From Succinivibrionaceae bacterium (GTDB lineage Bacteria; Pseudomonadota; Gammaproteobacteria; Enterobacterales; Succinivibrionaceae), in the NCBI GenBank assembly GCA_051892875.1, contig JBJFGR010000026.1:7982-71981 (forward strand): a DNA stretch of 64,000 bases, given 5' to 3'. Each line of letters opens with the position of its first letter. Positions within the stretch are counted from its first letter, which is position 1. The notes beneath the pieces were generated by a model, which did not search any database, was not told where the DNA came from, and saw only the letters and a program-made list of their open reading frames with translations. This document shows positions 54,263 through 63,956 of this stretch, piece after piece. Position numbers and translations under genes: made by a program.

Positions 54263-54454
54263 TTATTGTTTACCATATAGTATATTTTGAGATGTGATTT
54301 GTGCGATTTTTACTATATATTTGTAAGATAGTATTTGTTTTTAACAAGCGATTAATATAGAGAGAATCATACAAGCTCTTTTTAGAATAAGCTTAAAAAA
54401 ATTATTAGATTGTAAGCTTTGTAAGCAGACAAAAAAAAATCATAATTTTTCACA

Positions 54455-56917: not shown

Positions 56918-57595
56918 ATGAATGGTAATATTACAACACAAGATGTTTTCAAAGCAGTAAATGAATTAGTTGCAGATGGAGAACGTATAACTTTAGCCAA
57001 TGTAAGAGCAAAAATTGGGAGGGGATCTTATGCAACTATTAAAAAGTTTCTAATACAACAAAATATTTCGACTGCACGTATTTCTGCGAATGTTGGTAAA
57101 GATGTTGTTGTTTCAAAAGTATCAGATTCTTTAGCTTCTGTTTTAAAAGATACTCAATCAGCAATTTTAGTCGCAACTGCAAAAGAAGAATGTTATAAAA
57201 AGCAACTTTCACAAAAAAAAATAGATGATTTTATATTAATAGCTGAAATGGTTATTGAAGAATTTATAGCAGAGATATTAGAAAATCACTTACCTGTTGA
57301 TAATTTATTAAAAGTTTTTAATAGCGATGTAAAAATTAGAAACATTATTACTACAAAAGAAACAGATACTCCAAGTATTGTAGAACCTACTGGAGTTGAT
57401 GTTATAGTACATAGTATGAAAGATGTTTTGGTTGATGAAATTTGCTCGTATATCAATAAAGTTATTCAAAACACTTATCAAGTAAATTCTTATGCAGGTG
57501 GGGTAAATAGCTTATTAGCTATTCAACATATGTTACTTGATTTAAAACAAAAGTTTAGGAAAGAAATTCAGTATGAGCAAGCTTACCACTACTGA
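56918..57595 (+). CDS. KfrA_N-type DNA-binding protein with helical C-terminal region (paralogue 1)
   Basis: ITTQDVFKAVNELVADGERITLANVRAKIGRGSYATIKKFL matches the KfrA N-terminal DNA-binding pattern. It starts 6 nt after the rsfS stop. Confidence 0.6.
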   Translation: MNGNITTQDVFKAVNELVADGERITLANVRAKIGRGSYATIKKFLIQQNISTARISANVGKDVVVSKVSDSLASVLKDTQSAILVATAKEECYKKQLSQKKIDDFILIAEMVIEEFIAEILENHLPVDNLLKVFNSDVKIRNIITTKETDTPSIVEPTGVDVIVHSMKDVLVDEICSYINKVIQNTYQVNSYAGGVNSLLAIQHMLLDLKQKFRKEIQYEQAYHY

Positions 57596-58091
57596 GATAA
57601 ACACAGTTATATCTAAATTATTATCAGAAGGAAAAAAAGTGAGTACTAAAAATGTACGAACTGAATTGGGATATGGTTCTTATTCATCAATACAAGAAAT
57701 CTTAAGAGAATTAGGTTATTTAGACGATAAACAAAAAATAGAAGATAAAGAAGAATCTAATGATACTATTAGTAGATTATTAGAGAAATATCAACAAGAG
57801 TTACAATTAAAAAATAAAGAAGTAAAAGATAAGGAATATTTATTAAAAAAATATGATGTTACTATTAGTAAAAAAATAGAATATGCTAATAATAATTTAA
57901 AACATTTTAATGACAGGATTTTAAAAGATAAAATAGTACCAACTATTCCTAACGATCTAATAAAATTATTAAATGAAGTTAGAGAGGTTCTTTATAAAAA
58001 AATTTCTATGCTATCTGATAATAAAGGGGACTATTATCTAGATAAAGCAAAAAGACTTCATCAGATGATGATCTTAAATAAAGATTCGTAA
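57573..58091 (+). CDS. KfrA_N-type DNA-binding protein with K/E-rich coiled-coil tail (paralogue 2)
   Basis: TTTEINTVISKLLSEGKKVSTKNVRTELGYGSYSSIQEILREL. It overlaps paralogue 1 by 23 nt. Confidence 0.6.
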   Translation: MSKLTTTEINTVISKLLSEGKKVSTKNVRTELGYGSYSSIQEILRELGYLDDKQKIEDKEESNDTISRLLEKYQQELQLKNKEVKDKEYLLKKYDVTISKKIEYANNNLKHFNDRILKDKIVPTIPNDLIKLLNEVREVLYKKISMLSDNKGDYYLDKAKRLHQMMILNKDS

Positions 58092-58151
58092 TTATAAAAT
58101 CAAAAAAAGAGTACTTATCCACTTATTTATCACCAAAATTATTAACGATAT

Positions 58152-58170
58152 ATTCACAAAAATTGTGAAT
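58152..58170 (+). terminator. Palindrome ATTCACAA-AAA-TTGTGAAT after the second kfrA-like gene (terminator or operator candidate)
   Basis: 8-bp stem with a 3-nt loop, followed by the T-rich TATATTTTATTTTT. Confidence 0.35.
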
Positions 58171-58370
58171 TATATTTTATTTTTGAAGTAATTATTTTAA
58201 TAAACAGTCTTACATTTTTTAAACAAGATTACAAAAGAGAAATAAGTATTGTGAGATATTTGCTACAAGTTTGTAGGTCATTAATAGAAAAATTCAAAAA
58301 ACATGCTTTTAAACCATTGTAGTATAAGCTCTTATAAAAAGTGTGATTAATATTGCTTTTTGTGAGACTA

Positions 58371-58398
58371 TTGTATTTTATGCATAAAAAGTTAAAAT
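58371..58398 (+). promoter_or_regulatory. Promoter of Csr/Rsm-like sRNA 2
   Basis: TTGTAT (58371-58376), 16-nt spacer, TAAAAT (58393-58398). TAAAATGA follows, as at sRNA 1. Confidence 0.55.
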
Positions 58399-58404
58399 GA
58401 TTAC

Positions 58405-58526
58405 ATGAATAGCGAGGAACAAGGATGTTCCGAAATTGATACTTAGGATGAGAATCAACTATTCAGGACAAGGATGTCCGAAACAAATTAAAGTAGGGAG
58501 GTTAGGATGACCTCCCTTTTCATTTC
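58405..58526 (+). ncRNA. Csr/Rsm-family CsrA-sequestering sRNA candidate 2
   Basis: Hairpins GGAAC-AAGGAT-GTTCC (58416-58431) and GGAC-AAGGAT-GTCC (58466-58479) are present. A single-stranded CUUAGGAUGAG lies at 58442-58452. The terminator GGGAGGT-TAGGATG-ACCTCCC (58496-58516) displays GGA in its loop and is followed by TTTT. There are seven GGA motifs, four of them as AGGAUG. Confidence 0.7.
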
Positions 58527-58798
58527 TATCAAAGTAGTATATAGATAATACTTGTTTGTTGAAAGACCTATTTATTCTGAGAGTATTTTGCATGATGTAC
58601 GTTGCTAGATAGAACGCTTACTTTTACGCAAAAAAATGGCATGAATATGCTATTTTTTAATAAATTATCGGTAATTGTGCCAACTTTTTTATAGACTAAG
58701 ATCTGTAATCACATTATGTGCTTCATACCACACATATGAATTCACTTTTAGGTTCAACAACTATAGGTTGTTCAAATACAGGTGATAGAATTATTATT

Positions 58799-59962
58799 CT
58801 ATCCAAGAATACGACCTAGTTGATTTAATACATAATCTTGATGGATTTTTTCTTGTTCTAGTCTGTTTAAATAAGATTGCTTAAGTATTTGTATAGCTTC
58901 AATTTCCATTGCGGTTAAAAATGAGCTACTTAGGTCTACTTCAGTACTTTCTGGTTCGTGAACCATTTCCTTTGGATGATTGATTATGGTTTCCTTATCC
59001 ATCATTATGGATTTTACATCAATTCCAGCATTTCTTCGAAATCTTTCAAGCATGGCGAATCCCCAGGAATCAACATCCCCCCAATATAAAACATCTTTTT
59101 GCTTTAACCATTTCGCCGTAGACCAAGCTAGGTTGTTACCACATCCAAAAATAATAGTTGTATCTGGAAAGTTAGGAACCATATAGCCTGACTGAATATT
59201 TTCAACTACAAGTATTTTTGTTCCAGGAAGTTCTGTATTAATCAAATCTGATGCACAAACCTGTATTACTCCAAAACCACTATTTTGACATGTTCTAACA
59301 TACACGAAGCCTGCAGGCTTCTGTAGTACCCCTAACCAATATTCAAGATTATCATTAGGAGCAGCTTCTATTGGTAGAGCAGCTTTTAATATTGATAAGA
59401 TAAGCTTGTCATTTTTCTCTAAAAACTTAGTATCAATATGTTGTATAGGTAAGGCTCTTAAATAAAAATTTTTTCCCATACCTTTTTTAAGCTGGGGTAA
59501 CACAGTGCAAAGTTTATTCACTGTATCCTTATCAAGTTCCCAAAGGTCATTAATAAGAGAATAGAAATTACCTTTATCACACTGTGGCCACACCAAAGAT
59601 AATTGTTGTACTGTTTCTAAAAAATTCTGTAAAGTTGTAGCAGTTGATTTTGGCAGTAGCTCTAGAAATTCATTTATATCATGAATTACTAACTTTGATG
59701 GTATATCTTGTTTATCTTCTGCAAACCTAAAGGTAATGCTTTTATATACAACAGCATTCTGATTCCTAAAATTTCTCCAATCTTGGATAAAACGATAGAA
59801 GGCTCCAGTATCCTTAAGAGCACTATTGCCTGTAGGTGGTTGTAGATTTATTTCCTTAAAGGACTTCTCTCCACTTAATACCTCCCCAAGGCGCTTTTTA
59901 GCGCTAGATGAGGATGTATAATAATCTATGAGCTTTTTAACAGCATCCTTTACAAGTATCAT
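58799..59962 (-). CDS. jetD: Wadjet JetD (Toprim-like nuclease subunit; DUF3322/DUF2220 architecture)
   Basis: The C-terminal Toprim-like motifs are ILVVENIQS and VLYWGDVDSWGFAMLERFRR. It overlaps the jetC stop by 1 nt. Confidence 0.8.
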   Translation of the reverse strand: MILVKDAVKKLIDYYTSSSSAKKRLGEVLSGEKSFKEINLQPPTGNSALKDTGAFYRFIQDWRNFRNQNAVVYKSITFRFAEDKQDIPSKLVIHDINEFLELLPKSTATTLQNFLETVQQLSLVWPQCDKGNFYSLINDLWELDKDTVNKLCTVLPQLKKGMGKNFYLRALPIQHIDTKFLEKNDKLILSILKAALPIEAAPNDNLEYWLGVLQKPAGFVYVRTCQNSGFGVIQVCASDLINTELPGTKILVVENIQSGYMVPNFPDTTIIFGCGNNLAWSTAKWLKQKDVLYWGDVDSWGFAMLERFRRNAGIDVKSIMMDKETIINHPKEMVHEPESTEVDLSSSFLTAMEIEAIQILKQSYLNRLEQEKIHQDYVLNQLGRILG

Positions 59963-62900
59963 TAACCTTCACCACCATTATCTATAGTAATTCCTAAGCT
60001 CTGTAATTCCGTAGCTCTACCTTCTTCAATCTGAGCATCATATTCATCCCAAGTAAGTTCACTAATTGAGCTTGAATGAGTATTGATATCTCTAGACATA
60101 ATTATTAGAGAGCGAGCATAGTCTCTTGCAACATCTATGTTCTTAAATGGAGTTATTAGATTTACATGAAGGCGAAGCTCCTTGAAGATCTTTAGAACTC
60201 TAACACTCACGGCATCTGATGTATTACTAAAGGCTTCATCCAAAAATACAGTTGAATACACTGGACATTCACCATTTTCAGGAGTAAGTACATAGGCCAA
60301 TGAGGCAGCAACCACGGTTCCTGCAAAAGCTTCCTTTTCACCACCAGACTTGCCACTAGACGAATCAAGAACATCTTTAATTTCTTTTGTTTCTCTATCA
60401 AGTTCTTGAGCTGTAAACTGAACCTGTAATCTTGGATCTAGTAATCGTTTTGAATCTATAGAAGATGACTTTAATGCTGATTCCAAGGTTTCAATTACCT
60501 TTGAAATAGCAGAATATCTTTTTTCATGATCATCTGATGAAATCATATTTAACACCTTGCTGGTGTTTCTGCTAAATTCATCTATATAAATGAATTTAGG
60601 TCTAGTATCCTTAATACAAAGGAAAGTATTTTCTCTAAATTCAGTTTTTTCTAGAACCTGATTAATTTTACCAATACGCTCTCTTATAGCGTTAAGCTCA
60701 CTCTTCATCTTCTGATCAATACAAGCTACTGATTGAGTAACCTCATTAGTAAGCTTTTCTTTAAACTCTTCCACAAGAGCTGGTAAACCTTCTCTTTCTA
60801 TATTATCTAAGTGATTCATATAATTTGGAAGCGCTAAAAAATCAGAACCCCAATCGGCAGTGATAGTTTCCCACTTAGTCGAAAATTTGATAAAGATATT
60901 GGTTACCTTGTTTATAATATCATTAATGCTATCTTCTTTACTCTTTAGTCGGTAATTAAATCTATCGCCAACCTTTTTACCAAAATCGCTATCATATATA
61001 GGTTTATGACAAGATGCCTGAATTTCCTTACAGATCTTTAGAATAAGATCTAGAACCTTCTTTTCAATATCATTATTTTCTAAGTCTCTAAAATGAGAGA
61101 GCTTAACTTCAGTGGATTTTAAGGCTTCTGATACAGATATTTTTTTACCAGCTATACTAAATAGCTCCTTATCAACCAGGGCTCTAGTTTTCTTAGCTTC
61201 TTCCCACAATTCACGAAGCTTTTTAGTATCATCACTAGTACGAATTTTTTCAGCACTAGCTCTGATTTCATCTATCTTTTCCTTAATAGATATTGTATCA
61301 ATATCACTGAAATACTTATAATTTTCAATTCTATTTAGTGCCCTTCTCTGATTTTCAAGTTGTTGTTTTGTTTCTCTTAAATTTTTAATCTTTTTTGCTA
61401 TATCTAGTAATTGTTTTTCCAATTTAGAATAGTCTTCTTGAAGCAATGATAGTCTTTCCTTTATAGAAAAACCTGTACACCAATCATGGCGATCATCTAT
61501 TCTAGTAAGATCCTTCTTTTCAAAAGCAAGTCCCTTCTTATGAATAAGACCTTCTCTAGTCATAGAAAATTCAGTGTCATTAAGCTCATTCACCGAATCA
61601 ACACAGGTAAGATCGTGTTTTAACAAGAAGCTCTTTAACCAAGCAGTAAATTCATGTTCCTTCCAGTAAAGCTTTCTTAAAAAACCTCTATTTCCAAATT
61701 CTTGATTACCATCAACTCTACCTGCAACTTGTACTCTTACATGTAGTCCAGTATTGCGAGCATTTAGCCAAGCTGTTATGTTTCGATAATCATTCGGAGC
61801 AACAATAAGTGTCTGACGAATACCACCTAAAGCTCTTTCAATAGCTCCGTGCCATGATTCTTCCTCTGAACGAACCTCAATAAGTTCAGCAGCGTAAACT
61901 AATTTGCTTCGATCTATAGATAACGATTTTGAAATTTCATTACGTAATTTTTGGAATCTGATATCAATATTAGAATCAGGATGCTTTTCAAGATCGGTAA
62001 TTTCATCCTTAATTGAATTTAATTCTTTAACCTTATCTTCCTGTTCTGCTTCTAGTCTACCAATACGACCAGAATTACCTTCAATACTGTCACTAATTTT
62101 TATTTCCATCACACTGCAGTAATCAAGATTTTTCTGAAAATCTTCACTTGTTTTTGGAACTTCCATTCCTGCGGCTTGAACTAATTCAACATAATCAGAT
62201 CTAATTCTTTCTACTTTTTGGTATTCAATTTCCTTTTGACGAATTTCGTTCTCAAAACTTTCTAGAACATCTCCACCATTTTTTAGATAGTTTTCATGAC
62301 AAAGTTCAATGTAGTGTTCAGTATCCTGCTTTTTAATTTCTAGTTCCCTTTCCTTCGCGATAAGCTGTTCTAATTGTTTGTTATATTCCTTACAATTAGC
62401 AGAAAGCTCCTTAACAGCTATTCCTGCAGCATATCCTTCAAAGCTACTTATAGCATCTTTAAATAATTCAGCTTCTGCTATATTTTTACTATAATCACTA
62501 TTTAGCTGACGGAGTGGTAATAAGCATTCCATTCTAGCTCTAGCATCCATAAGCTTTTCATGAGTGATACGTAGATCTGAAAACTGATTCACTGCAGCTT
62601 CAGCATCCTGCTTTATTTCACCAGGCTCTAATACGAGAGTACGTATTAAAGTAGTAAGATCATCAATTTTTTTAAGACCTAAGGCTCTAGAAAGCAATGC
62701 TGGAGCATTCTGGTTATCCATATGCAATTTATGAGTAAAATGAGTAAAGTATTCTGAAAAATTGTTATCACAAACTCTAACGTCATCATATTGCTTTAAC
62801 CAACTTTTTAAATGTCTTATGTCATGATTACTAAAGTGAGACAGTATATCCTTAATGCTAATATCTGTTTCACCAACAATATAGATTCTTTTTACATCAG

Positions 62901-63309
62901 CAACAGACATGCCTTGACCAGTAATTGAAAATATACCAATCAAAACAACCTTATGATCTGATTCGGTATGACAATATACGGCCTTAATTACAGAGACTAC
63001 AGAACCGATACGAAGATTTCGGCTTACCTGACCTTCTTCTTCACTTAAAGCTCTACCATAGCTACCTCTCATATAGGACACAATACTACGATCAGATTTG
63101 TCACCTTGAGCAGCTGCCATGTTAAAGCCTGCATTACCAGCAGGACGAAGTAGCACCATTAGACCATCTATAATAGTAGACTTACCAGCGCCGTTTTCAC
63201 CTGTTATCAAGGTTCCATTTTCGTTAATTGAAATTGTATGCAATCCTTGGAAGGAGCCCCAGTTATATACGGAAAGCGTACTTAGCTTAATCTGATCAGT
63301 ATTTGCCAT
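59962..63309 (-). CDS. jetC: Wadjet JetC (SMC-like ABC ATPase)
   Basis: N-terminus LSTLSVYNWGSFQGLHTISINENGTLITGENGAGKSTIIDG (Walker A). A long coiled-coil middle region. The C-terminus has SGGEKEAFAGTVVAASLAY (signature-like motif) and VFLDEAF (Walker B). Confidence 0.85.
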   Translation of the reverse strand: MANTDQIKLSTLSVYNWGSFQGLHTISINENGTLITGENGAGKSTIIDGLMVLLRPAGNAGFNMAAAQGDKSDRSIVSYMRGSYGRALSEEEGQVSRNLRIGSVVSVIKAVYCHTESDHKVVLIGIFSITGQGMSVADVKRIYIVGETDISIKDILSHFSNHDIRHLKSWLKQYDDVRVCDNNFSEYFTHFTHKLHMDNQNAPALLSRALGLKKIDDLTTLIRTLVLEPGEIKQDAEAAVNQFSDLRITHEKLMDARARMECLLPLRQLNSDYSKNIAEAELFKDAISSFEGYAAGIAVKELSANCKEYNKQLEQLIAKERELEIKKQDTEHYIELCHENYLKNGGDVLESFENEIRQKEIEYQKVERIRSDYVELVQAAGMEVPKTSEDFQKNLDYCSVMEIKISDSIEGNSGRIGRLEAEQEDKVKELNSIKDEITDLEKHPDSNIDIRFQKLRNEISKSLSIDRSKLVYAAELIEVRSEEESWHGAIERALGGIRQTLIVAPNDYRNITAWLNARNTGLHVRVQVAGRVDGNQEFGNRGFLRKLYWKEHEFTAWLKSFLLKHDLTCVDSVNELNDTEFSMTREGLIHKKGLAFEKKDLTRIDDRHDWCTGFSIKERLSLLQEDYSKLEKQLLDIAKKIKNLRETKQQLENQRRALNRIENYKYFSDIDTISIKEKIDEIRASAEKIRTSDDTKKLRELWEEAKKTRALVDKELFSIAGKKISVSEALKSTEVKLSHFRDLENNDIEKKVLDLILKICKEIQASCHKPIYDSDFGKKVGDRFNYRLKSKEDSINDIINKVTNIFIKFSTKWETITADWGSDFLALPNYMNHLDNIEREGLPALVEEFKEKLTNEVTQSVACIDQKMKSELNAIRERIGKINQVLEKTEFRENTFLCIKDTRPKFIYIDEFSRNTSKVLNMISSDDHEKRYSAISKVIETLESALKSSSIDSKRLLDPRLQVQFTAQELDRETKEIKDVLDSSSGKSGGEKEAFAGTVVAASLAYVLTPENGECPVYSTVFLDEAFSNTSDAVSVRVLKIFKELRLHVNLITPFKNIDVARDYARSLIIMSRDINTHSSSISELTWDEYDAQIEEGRATELQSLGITIDNGGEG

Positions 63310-63956
63310 TATTCATCTCCTTCCACTTCATCTTCTTCTTCTTTGCTTGTTGCATTGGCCATTACCTTTTTACGTTTACTGCTGATAGGTTGACTAATCA
63401 GTTTATTGTATTCCTCTAATAGAGATTTCATGAATTCAGCATTAACTACATATCTTATAAGTGGCGAAACCATAATTCGGTCTTCATCCTCACCTGGAAG
63501 GATTTTGATTAATTTCTTTTCCTCTAAACGATTTAACACTCCACCAATACGTTTTTTTAAGGTCTGACTGCTAGCTGTAATATCGTGATATGGTGTTAGC
63601 ATATTTTCAATTCGGTCGTAACCCATAACAATAGTTGTTTCACCACCAGTATATCTTTCGTGATAATATTTTCTGATTACTAAAAGTACGAGTGTATCAA
63701 AGATCTGAAGCTTACGACTTACTATTAAAAAATTATCCTTATCAAAATCCTCAGCAGGTGCATTTTGATTATCAGCTTCACTTATAGCATTTTCTTCATC
63801 AGTTATTTCTTCTTCTCTACGAAGATTTTCAATATATGCTAAACCATTTTCTTCACTAATTTGGAGTTTTAAATTGATATTACGGAGGTAAGCACTAATT
63901 TCATCCTTGTGAATGAATAGCTCCTTAAATCTAGCTTCATGCTCTCTCTGTTGCAT
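63309..63956 (-). CDS. jetB: Wadjet JetB (DUF4194, kleisin-associated KITE-like subunit)
   Basis: It has the right size and position and an acidic internal loop. LIVSRKLQIFDTLVLLVIRKYY...NRLEEKKLIKIL fits the DUF4194 pattern. The frame stays open upstream to the window edge, so the start is provisional. Confidence 0.7.
   Translation of the reverse strand: MQQREHEARFKELFIHKDEISAYLRNINLKLQISEENGLAYIENLRREEEITDEENAISEADNQNAPAEDFDKDNFLIVSRKLQIFDTLVLLVIRKYYHERYTGGETTIVMGYDRIENMLTPYHDITASSQTLKKRIGGVLNRLEEKKLIKILPGEDEDRIMVSPLIRYVVNAEFMKSLLEEYNKLISQPISSKRKKVMANATSKEEEDEVEGDE

Follow-up and report, generated by a model that had tools for sequence, protein, structure and literature searches.

The window analysed here, a stretch of 64,000 nt from contig JBJFGR010000026.1 of a Succinivibrionaceae bacterium (assembly of 2.73 Mb in 156 contigs, 98% complete, about 30% G+C), carries two tandem KfrA_N-domain genes directly 3' of rsfS (Pfam; 56918-58091) and, on the opposite strand, a Wadjet system (58799-63956) with JetD, a JetC-like SMC ATPase and JetB (DUF4194/MksE) (Pfam). 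Between the second KfrA_N gene and jetD lies a 707-nt intergenic gap, on which the kfrA-like and jetD transcription units converge. This gap holds a short element, here termed candidate 2, that a preliminary description had read as a Csr/Rsm-type sRNA gene. No plus-strand open reading frame of at least 40 aa overlaps candidate 2, and because the plus strand is without any gene before the terminator, candidate 2 is not a leader. Logan contigs that contain the neighbouring KfrA protein were recovered from two other samples; they are identical to the window and end before or inside candidate 2. Sequence that neighbours the locus occurs in the runs SRR30616819 and SRR30616824. The features of the locus are the following.

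57573-58091, + strand: second KfrA_N gene, left flank of the gap
58250-58267, + strand: putative UvrY/GacA-box-like 18-mer TGTGAGATATTTGCTACA, centred at about -146 from the predicted start
58272-58280, + strand: additional half-site TGTAGGTCA, following the 18-mer after 4 nt
58361-58368, + strand: TGTGAGAC, close to the promoter; it stops 2 nt short of the -35 hexamer
58371-58398, + strand: sigma-70-type promoter, -35 TTGTAT (58371-58376), 16-nt spacer, -10 TAAAAT (58393-58398), then GA
58400-58526, + strand: candidate 2 sRNA body, about 120 nt, supported by its fold, the lack of a plus-strand ORF of at least 40 aa and covariance-model matches to paralogues and homologues
58406-58465, + strand: 5' domain, closing stem P1 around hairpins H1 and H2
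58406-58412 and 58459-58465, + strand: strands UGAAUAG and CUAUUCA of P1, 7 bp and perfect in the predicted fold
58416-58431, + strand: hairpin H1, GGAAC-AAGGAT-GTTCC, loop AAGGAU
58436-58458, + strand: hairpin H2, with a GGA triloop at 58446-58448
58442-58452, + strand: CTTAGGATGAG, as read from the sequence
58466-58479, + strand: hairpin H3, GGAC-AAGGAU-GUCC, displaying ACAAGGAUGU
58496-58525, + strand: intrinsic terminator, stem-loop GGGAGGT-TAGGATG-ACCTCCC (58496-58516), then TTTTCATTT
58799-59962, - strand: jetD of the Wadjet operon, right flank of the gap

The sequence features that the preliminary description had read from the letters are all found in place: the TTGTAT-16-TAAAAT promoter, the two hairpins with an AAGGAT hexaloop on GGAAC/GTTCC and GGAC/GTCC stems, and the GGGAGGT/ACCTCCC terminator with its UAGGAUG loop and U-tract. 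The seven GGA motifs that it had counted in about 120 nt are also there, over 127 nt (starts at 58416, 58423, 58446, 58466, 58472, 58497 and 58505). The segment CUUAGGAUGAG, held to be unpaired, is predicted instead to fold into a hairpin, CUUA-GGA-UGAG, that lies inside P1 and carries its GGA in the loop. The candidate 2 promoter is absent from a strict consensus promoter scan; a -10 TAAAAT or TATAAT stands at the equal position in the paralogous candidates 1 and 3 and in the homologues of two other genera, g11 and g14 (genera are given by our own numbers). Transcription is predicted to start at about 58403-58407 and to end in the U-tract at about 58520-58525. As RNA the terminator reads GGGAGGU / UAGGAUG / ACCUCCC, then UUUUCAUUU, and it was also detected by a consensus scan, for which 0.2 terminators per region are expected by chance; the same scan detects the stem-loop on the minus strand too. 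The segment 58400-58526 folds with -36.8 kcal/mol, while shuffled versions have a mean of -23.6 kcal/mol (z = -4.0), and none of 200 shuffles was as good. Four of the seven GGA motifs are AGGAUG in hairpin loops, fully unpaired in the minimum free energy (MFE) structure, and the mean probability of being unpaired is 0.57 for GGA positions versus 0.41 overall.

At least seven GGA per 127 nt put candidate 2 in the top 0.026% of segments of that size, which is rare, not unique: 44 genome regions reach this number, most of them coding and Gly/Asp- or Pro-rich. The extended AGGATG motif is the decisive criterion. Three or more AGGATG with short gaps occur in the 2.7-Mb genome only in candidate 2 and its duplicate, and a search of the 2.73 Mb for three GGATG gave five matches, with the sRNA candidates making up three of them. 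Across the family the GGATG search was uninformative, being swamped by repeats in the higher-GC genera. The AGGATG cluster, unique in the genome to candidate 2 and its copy, argues against the reading of the element as a cis-acting structure. On that reading the kfrA-like operon and the convergent jetD would share a structured terminator or insulator region, and the GGA motifs would have arisen by chance in AT-rich DNA. Such a role would fit the position between convergent transcription units and a stem-loop that is detected on the minus strand as well; however, candidate 2 has its own promoter and upstream box, and the same unit recurs in other genera and at loci unrelated to this one, no neighbours being shared between these places, so that we regard a cis element as highly improbable.

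There are four such sRNA genes in the genome, namely candidate 2, its copy, and candidates 1 and 3.

58214-58548, + strand: duplicated unit around candidate 2, equivalent to G000:C61:1380-1714 (- strand), 335 nt, 98.8% identity
54484-54620, + strand: candidate 1, upstream of serS
G000:C11:4377-4508, - strand: candidate 3 (locus L175), 42 bits and E = 6e-7 with the covariance model of candidate 2

Candidate 1 receives 23 bits from the same model (E about 1e-3) and consists of P1 (AAACAU/AUGUUU), GAAC-AAGGAU-GUUC, ACUUAUGGAUGAGU and a terminator; candidate 3 carries GAGACAUGGAUGUUUC, GUUCUUAGGACGAGAAC and GAACAUGGACGUUC hairpins plus a terminator. The duplicated unit begins about 185 nt before the -10, includes the upstream box and extends about 25 nt beyond the terminator. 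The copy departs from candidate 2 in the final base of the U-tract and further downstream, the RNA body being otherwise identical; its flanks are unrelated to those of candidate 2, and IS5-like transposase ORF fragments adjoin it. Duplication beside transposase-like fragments could mean that the family is real and that candidate 2 and its duplicate are silent or decaying extra copies, either unexpressed or redundant remnants on mobile DNA. A relative (G008) with a copy whose GGA motifs have decayed, and a spacing from box to promoter that in candidate 2 is about 35 nt shorter than that of the other copies, point the same way. Against this, neither copy shows damage to box, -35/-10, GGA loops or terminator, the box still fits the exact consensus, and among the four paralogues candidate 2 has the best motif quality; decay is thus quite improbable in our view.

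The upstream box was obtained by aligning the upstream regions of the paralogues. Candidate 1 has TGTGCGATTTTTACTATA and, after 4 nt, TGTAAGATA (54300-54317 and 54322-54330), with the box centred at about -180 from the predicted start, and the box of candidate 3 reads TGTAAGATATTTGCTATA, the exact box TGTAAGATATTTGCTA lying about 215 nt upstream of candidate 3. The arrangement of an 18-mer plus a half-site is found in candidate 1 and in homologues from genera g14, g10 and g7. The exact consensus TGTRAGAYATTTGCYA has three sites in the genome, and these are upstream of candidate 2, of its copy and of candidate 3; with one mismatch allowed there are still three sites, and the reversed-sequence control has none. 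With up to two mismatches the box gives 23 matches versus 19 in the control, and since this is control level, only the exact or one-mismatch box is informative.

In E. coli and Salmonella the response regulator UvrY/SirA footprints on csrB at TGTGAGAGATCTCTTACA, centred at -183, and on csrC at the less symmetric TGTGAGACATTGCCGATA (E. coli) and TGTGAGACATTGACCATT (Salmonella); E. coli csrB has an extra TGTAGGAGA 5 bp downstream of the inverted repeat (Zere et al., 2015; PMC4682653). The 18-mer of candidate 2 is a poor palindrome, and TGTGAGATATTTGCTACA here as well as TGTGAGACATTTGCCATT in relatives are close to the two csrC sequences. As in csrB, an additional TGTAGG half-site follows 4-5 bp downstream of the box. 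Both the poor symmetry of the 18-mer and the position of the box count against a Csr/Rsm-type gene: the box is centred at about -146 in candidate 2, whereas candidate 1, the relatives and E. coli have it at about -180. A second UvrY crosslinking site has been described near the promoter of csrB/csrC in E. coli and Salmonella (Zere et al., 2015; PMC4682653), and by analogy TGTGAGAC at 58361-58368 may be a second UvrY contact site.

The genus of candidate 2 is represented by one genome, and the conservation described here is that between genera. In a blastn search of the locus against 40 relatives the only match was its own second copy. The covariance model of candidate 2 detects homologues in two other genera, g11 and g14. 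The g11 RNAs share the layout: P1, GGAAC-AGGGAC-GUUCC, UUUUC-AAGGA-UGAAA, CCGGAAC-AGGGAC-GUUCCGG and terminator. Those of g14 are longer (about 260 nt), CsrB-like, and start with GUGUUGAGG-GGAACAAGGAUGUUCC. A scan for the box alone, independent of the RNA covariance model, gave 59 matches versus 4 in the control among 81 genomes of the family, in 11 of its 17 genera. Boxes of the TTTGCC type are followed by GGA-hairpin RNAs with terminators about 170-190 nt further on in genera g2, g7, g9, g10, g11 and g14, and at least seven of the family's genera have the box with a GGA-hairpin RNA behind it. Relatives have tandem arrays of two or three sRNA genes, 446 to about 720 nt apart and with one box per copy, and some relatives have four or five upstream-box sites. 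Arrays were found at the following loci.

L159, 688-819 and 1393-1523: two copies
L148, 782-913 and 1501-1632: two copies
L150, 866-988, 1501-1623 and 2055-2180: three copies
L209: a further array

In a synteny comparison none of the mscK-like gene, serS, rsfS, kfrA and jetBCD adjoins the sRNA arrays of the relatives. A contig search for synteny based on SerS returned only distant Gammaproteobacteria and Betaproteobacteria with 59-67% identity, and the arrays that turned up in a metagenome scan for the H1 hairpin were all g14-like, none of the matches being closely related to candidate 2. At locus L229 (G008, genus g9) we observed a box-associated copy with several mutated GGA motifs (AAGAUG, AUGAUGAG), which may be a degenerating paralogue.

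Separate single-sequence MFE folds place a P1 stem around two GGA hairpins in the following RNAs, with P1 sequences that are unrelated to each other (5' strand / 3' strand).

Candidate 2: UGAAUAG / CUAUUCA
Candidate 1: AAACAU / AUGUUU
G064 (g11; fold of G064a): AUCGGCGG / CCGCCGAU
G010 (g11): CAGCACAG / CUGUGCUG
G022 (g10; fold of G022a): ACAUGA / UCAUGU

Candidate 1, to which the preliminary description had likened candidate 2, shows the same design in its own fold. The GGA-bearing terminator loop, stressed there as a classic RsmY/CsrB feature, is a detail without such support: it is particular to the candidate 2 RNA and is not conserved in the other paralogues or in the short-form homologues compared. 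In an alignment of 12 sequences fitted to the model, 90% of cells pair, where shuffles reach 71.5% and slid controls 34-56%, and all 7 P1 pairs are changed on both sides, statistics that come from few sequences and from an alignment which, being fitted to the model, leans towards it. RNAalifold on a plain MAFFT alignment of the 5' domains recovered H1 and H2 with GGA in the loops; P1 was not recovered there, because its columns are not alignable by sequence. The A(N)GGAYG loop motifs stay constant from genus to genus, while the stems vary.

At gathering thresholds no Rfam model matches anywhere in the window. The CsrB (RF00018; gathering threshold 71 bits) and CsrC (RF00084) models have no match at E<=10 in 58000-58900, the CsrB model has none at E<=0.01 in the whole genome, and the homologue loci of the relatives have no Csr/Rsm Rfam match at E<=1. 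In a search by E value the one match was to PrrB_RsmZ (RF00166), which alone among the Csr/Rsm-family models can be aligned with candidate 2 over its full length. Its match of 17.8 bits (E = 0.12, gathering threshold 44) was rejected as noise, because a coding region's 3' end together with its terminator (G000:C41:16679-16801) scores 18.7 bits with this model. The latter match is a noise yardstick for the PrrB_RsmZ model in this AT-rich genome. In a set of 25 genomes covering all 17 genera of the family, none is over the CsrB cut-off. Elsewhere in the order the model finds canonical CsrB in eight sister families, and in five of these the score is over the cut-off (genomes G025, G032, G033, G034 and G040); the genes often stand in tandem, up to five together. 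Three of these canonical CsrB loci have TGTRAGAGAT about 200 nt upstream, and hence it is the promoters that link CsrB and candidate-2-type genes. Candidate 2 probably derives from the csrB/csrC lineage, having become shorter and too divergent for Rfam to detect.

The genome encodes the partners that a Csr system requires. CsrA is a protein of 64 aa (G000:C60:42768-42971; Pfam 78 bits; NCBIfam NF002469 79.5 bits versus a cut-off of 73), a regulator of the UvrY/SirA/GacA type scores 334 bits with NCBIfam NF007018 (cut-off 280), and the kinase BarA scores 937 bits with NF008318 (cut-off 890). These partner genes, the UvrY-box-like element and the homologues in other genera sustain the Csr/Rsm-type reading of the preliminary description. 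Absence of covariance-model hits and of hairpin conservation in related genomes had been named there as evidence that would count against it. Conservation is not lacking, because homologues exist in other genera and are hit by the model built on candidate 2; on the side of Rfam, no model reaches threshold.

Taken together, we consider it likely, with a probability of roughly 0.8, that 58400-58526 is a stand-alone Csr/Rsm-class sRNA gene of about 120 nt, activated by UvrY, titrating CsrA and belonging to a lineage-specific family. From the sequence we infer the transcription of candidate 2, its UvrY dependence, its CsrA binding and stoichiometry, and its physiological output. In the proposed sequence of events, the sensor kinase BarA would phosphorylate UvrY, and UvrY-P would bind the box at 58250-58280, perhaps together with TGTGAGAC at 58361-58368, and thereby activate the TTGTAT-16-TAAAAT promoter. 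The transcript would stop at the intrinsic terminator. Its hairpin loops would expose four A(N)GGAUG sites of high affinity, and two of these are ACAAGGAUGU, the core of the CsrA SELEX consensus. These sites might titrate about two CsrA dimers per molecule, so that the control of CsrA over its target mRNAs would be relieved.

A different function of a real and conserved RNA has to be weighed here, as candidate 2 might be a base-pairing sRNA or the ligand of another protein and not a CsrA sponge. CsrA binding of candidate 2 is a prediction, the Rfam Csr/Rsm models do not recognise the RNA, and to our knowledge a P1-closed two-hairpin domain is not a feature of CsrB or RsmZ. On the other hand, the positions conserved across genera are exactly the A(N)GGAYG loop motifs while stems vary, ACAAGGAUGU corresponds to the core of the CsrA SELEX consensus, CsrA is encoded in the genome, and the promoter has a box typical of csrB/csrC. 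A function other than CsrA sequestration is therefore unlikely, although we hold it to be the least improbable of the alternatives considered.

As a CsrA-titrating RNA, candidate 2 is functionally best read as an analogue of CsrB/CsrC or RsmY/RsmZ. CsrB is about 369 nt long and has some 18-22 sites; for CsrC the figures are about 245 nt and some 9-13. Candidate 2 would share with these RNAs of E. coli and Salmonella the sequestration of CsrA by GGA in loops, and its similar box suggests activation from a far-upstream UvrY/SirA site; it differs in its much smaller size of about 120 nt, which leaves room for about four exposed sites, and in the P1-closed 5' domain, which is specific to the candidate-2 family. 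The Pseudomonas RNAs RsmY and RsmZ are about 118-127 nt long and have 7-8 GGA, of which several stand in the loops of short hairpins; their genes end in a Rho-independent terminator and are preceded by a GacA box. Size and layout of candidate 2 resemble them, which is an analogy and not demonstrable homology, and its box is of the csrC type, unlike the palindromic TGTAAG-N6-CTTACA. Redundant Csr sRNA genes are known from the CsrB/C/D set of Vibrio and from multi-copy rsmX families, and the four genes found here recall this multiplicity, whereas sequence similarity of those RNAs to candidate 2 is not detectable.

On balance we incline to a wider view, in which candidate 2 and its paralogues form a lineage-specific family of short Csr sRNAs (about 120-140 nt) that is absent from Rfam and has replaced canonical CsrB/CsrC throughout this bacterial family, a group of Gammaproteobacteria that is probably gut-associated. 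The core of these RNAs would be a clamp, in which a covarying stem holds two GGA hairpins about 20-25 nt apart, a distance sized for both faces of one CsrA dimer.

The mechanism of Csr sRNAs itself is already known, and the BarA/UvrY-Csr cascade is a master switch in Gammaproteobacteria, with carbon storage, motility, the formation of biofilms and interaction with the host under its control. Its sRNA arm usually stays invisible in uncultured lineages because the RNAs evolve fast. With none of 25 genomes over the CsrB cut-off, standard Rfam annotation misses the Csr sRNAs of the whole family, while the conserved UvrY box together with AGGAUG clustering recovers them, and seed sequences from at least seven genera can now be used for a new covariance model. 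BarA of E. coli responds to short-chain fatty acids, which makes a role as nutrient sensor plausible in a gut organism.

The upstream region contains one further element, a perfect palindrome TATAAGCTCTTATA at 58323-58336 of the window, between the upstream box and the -35 hexamer. Candidate 1 has the related ACAAGCTCTT at a comparable place. The palindrome at 58323-58336 could be an IHF-like site or the site of a second regulator.
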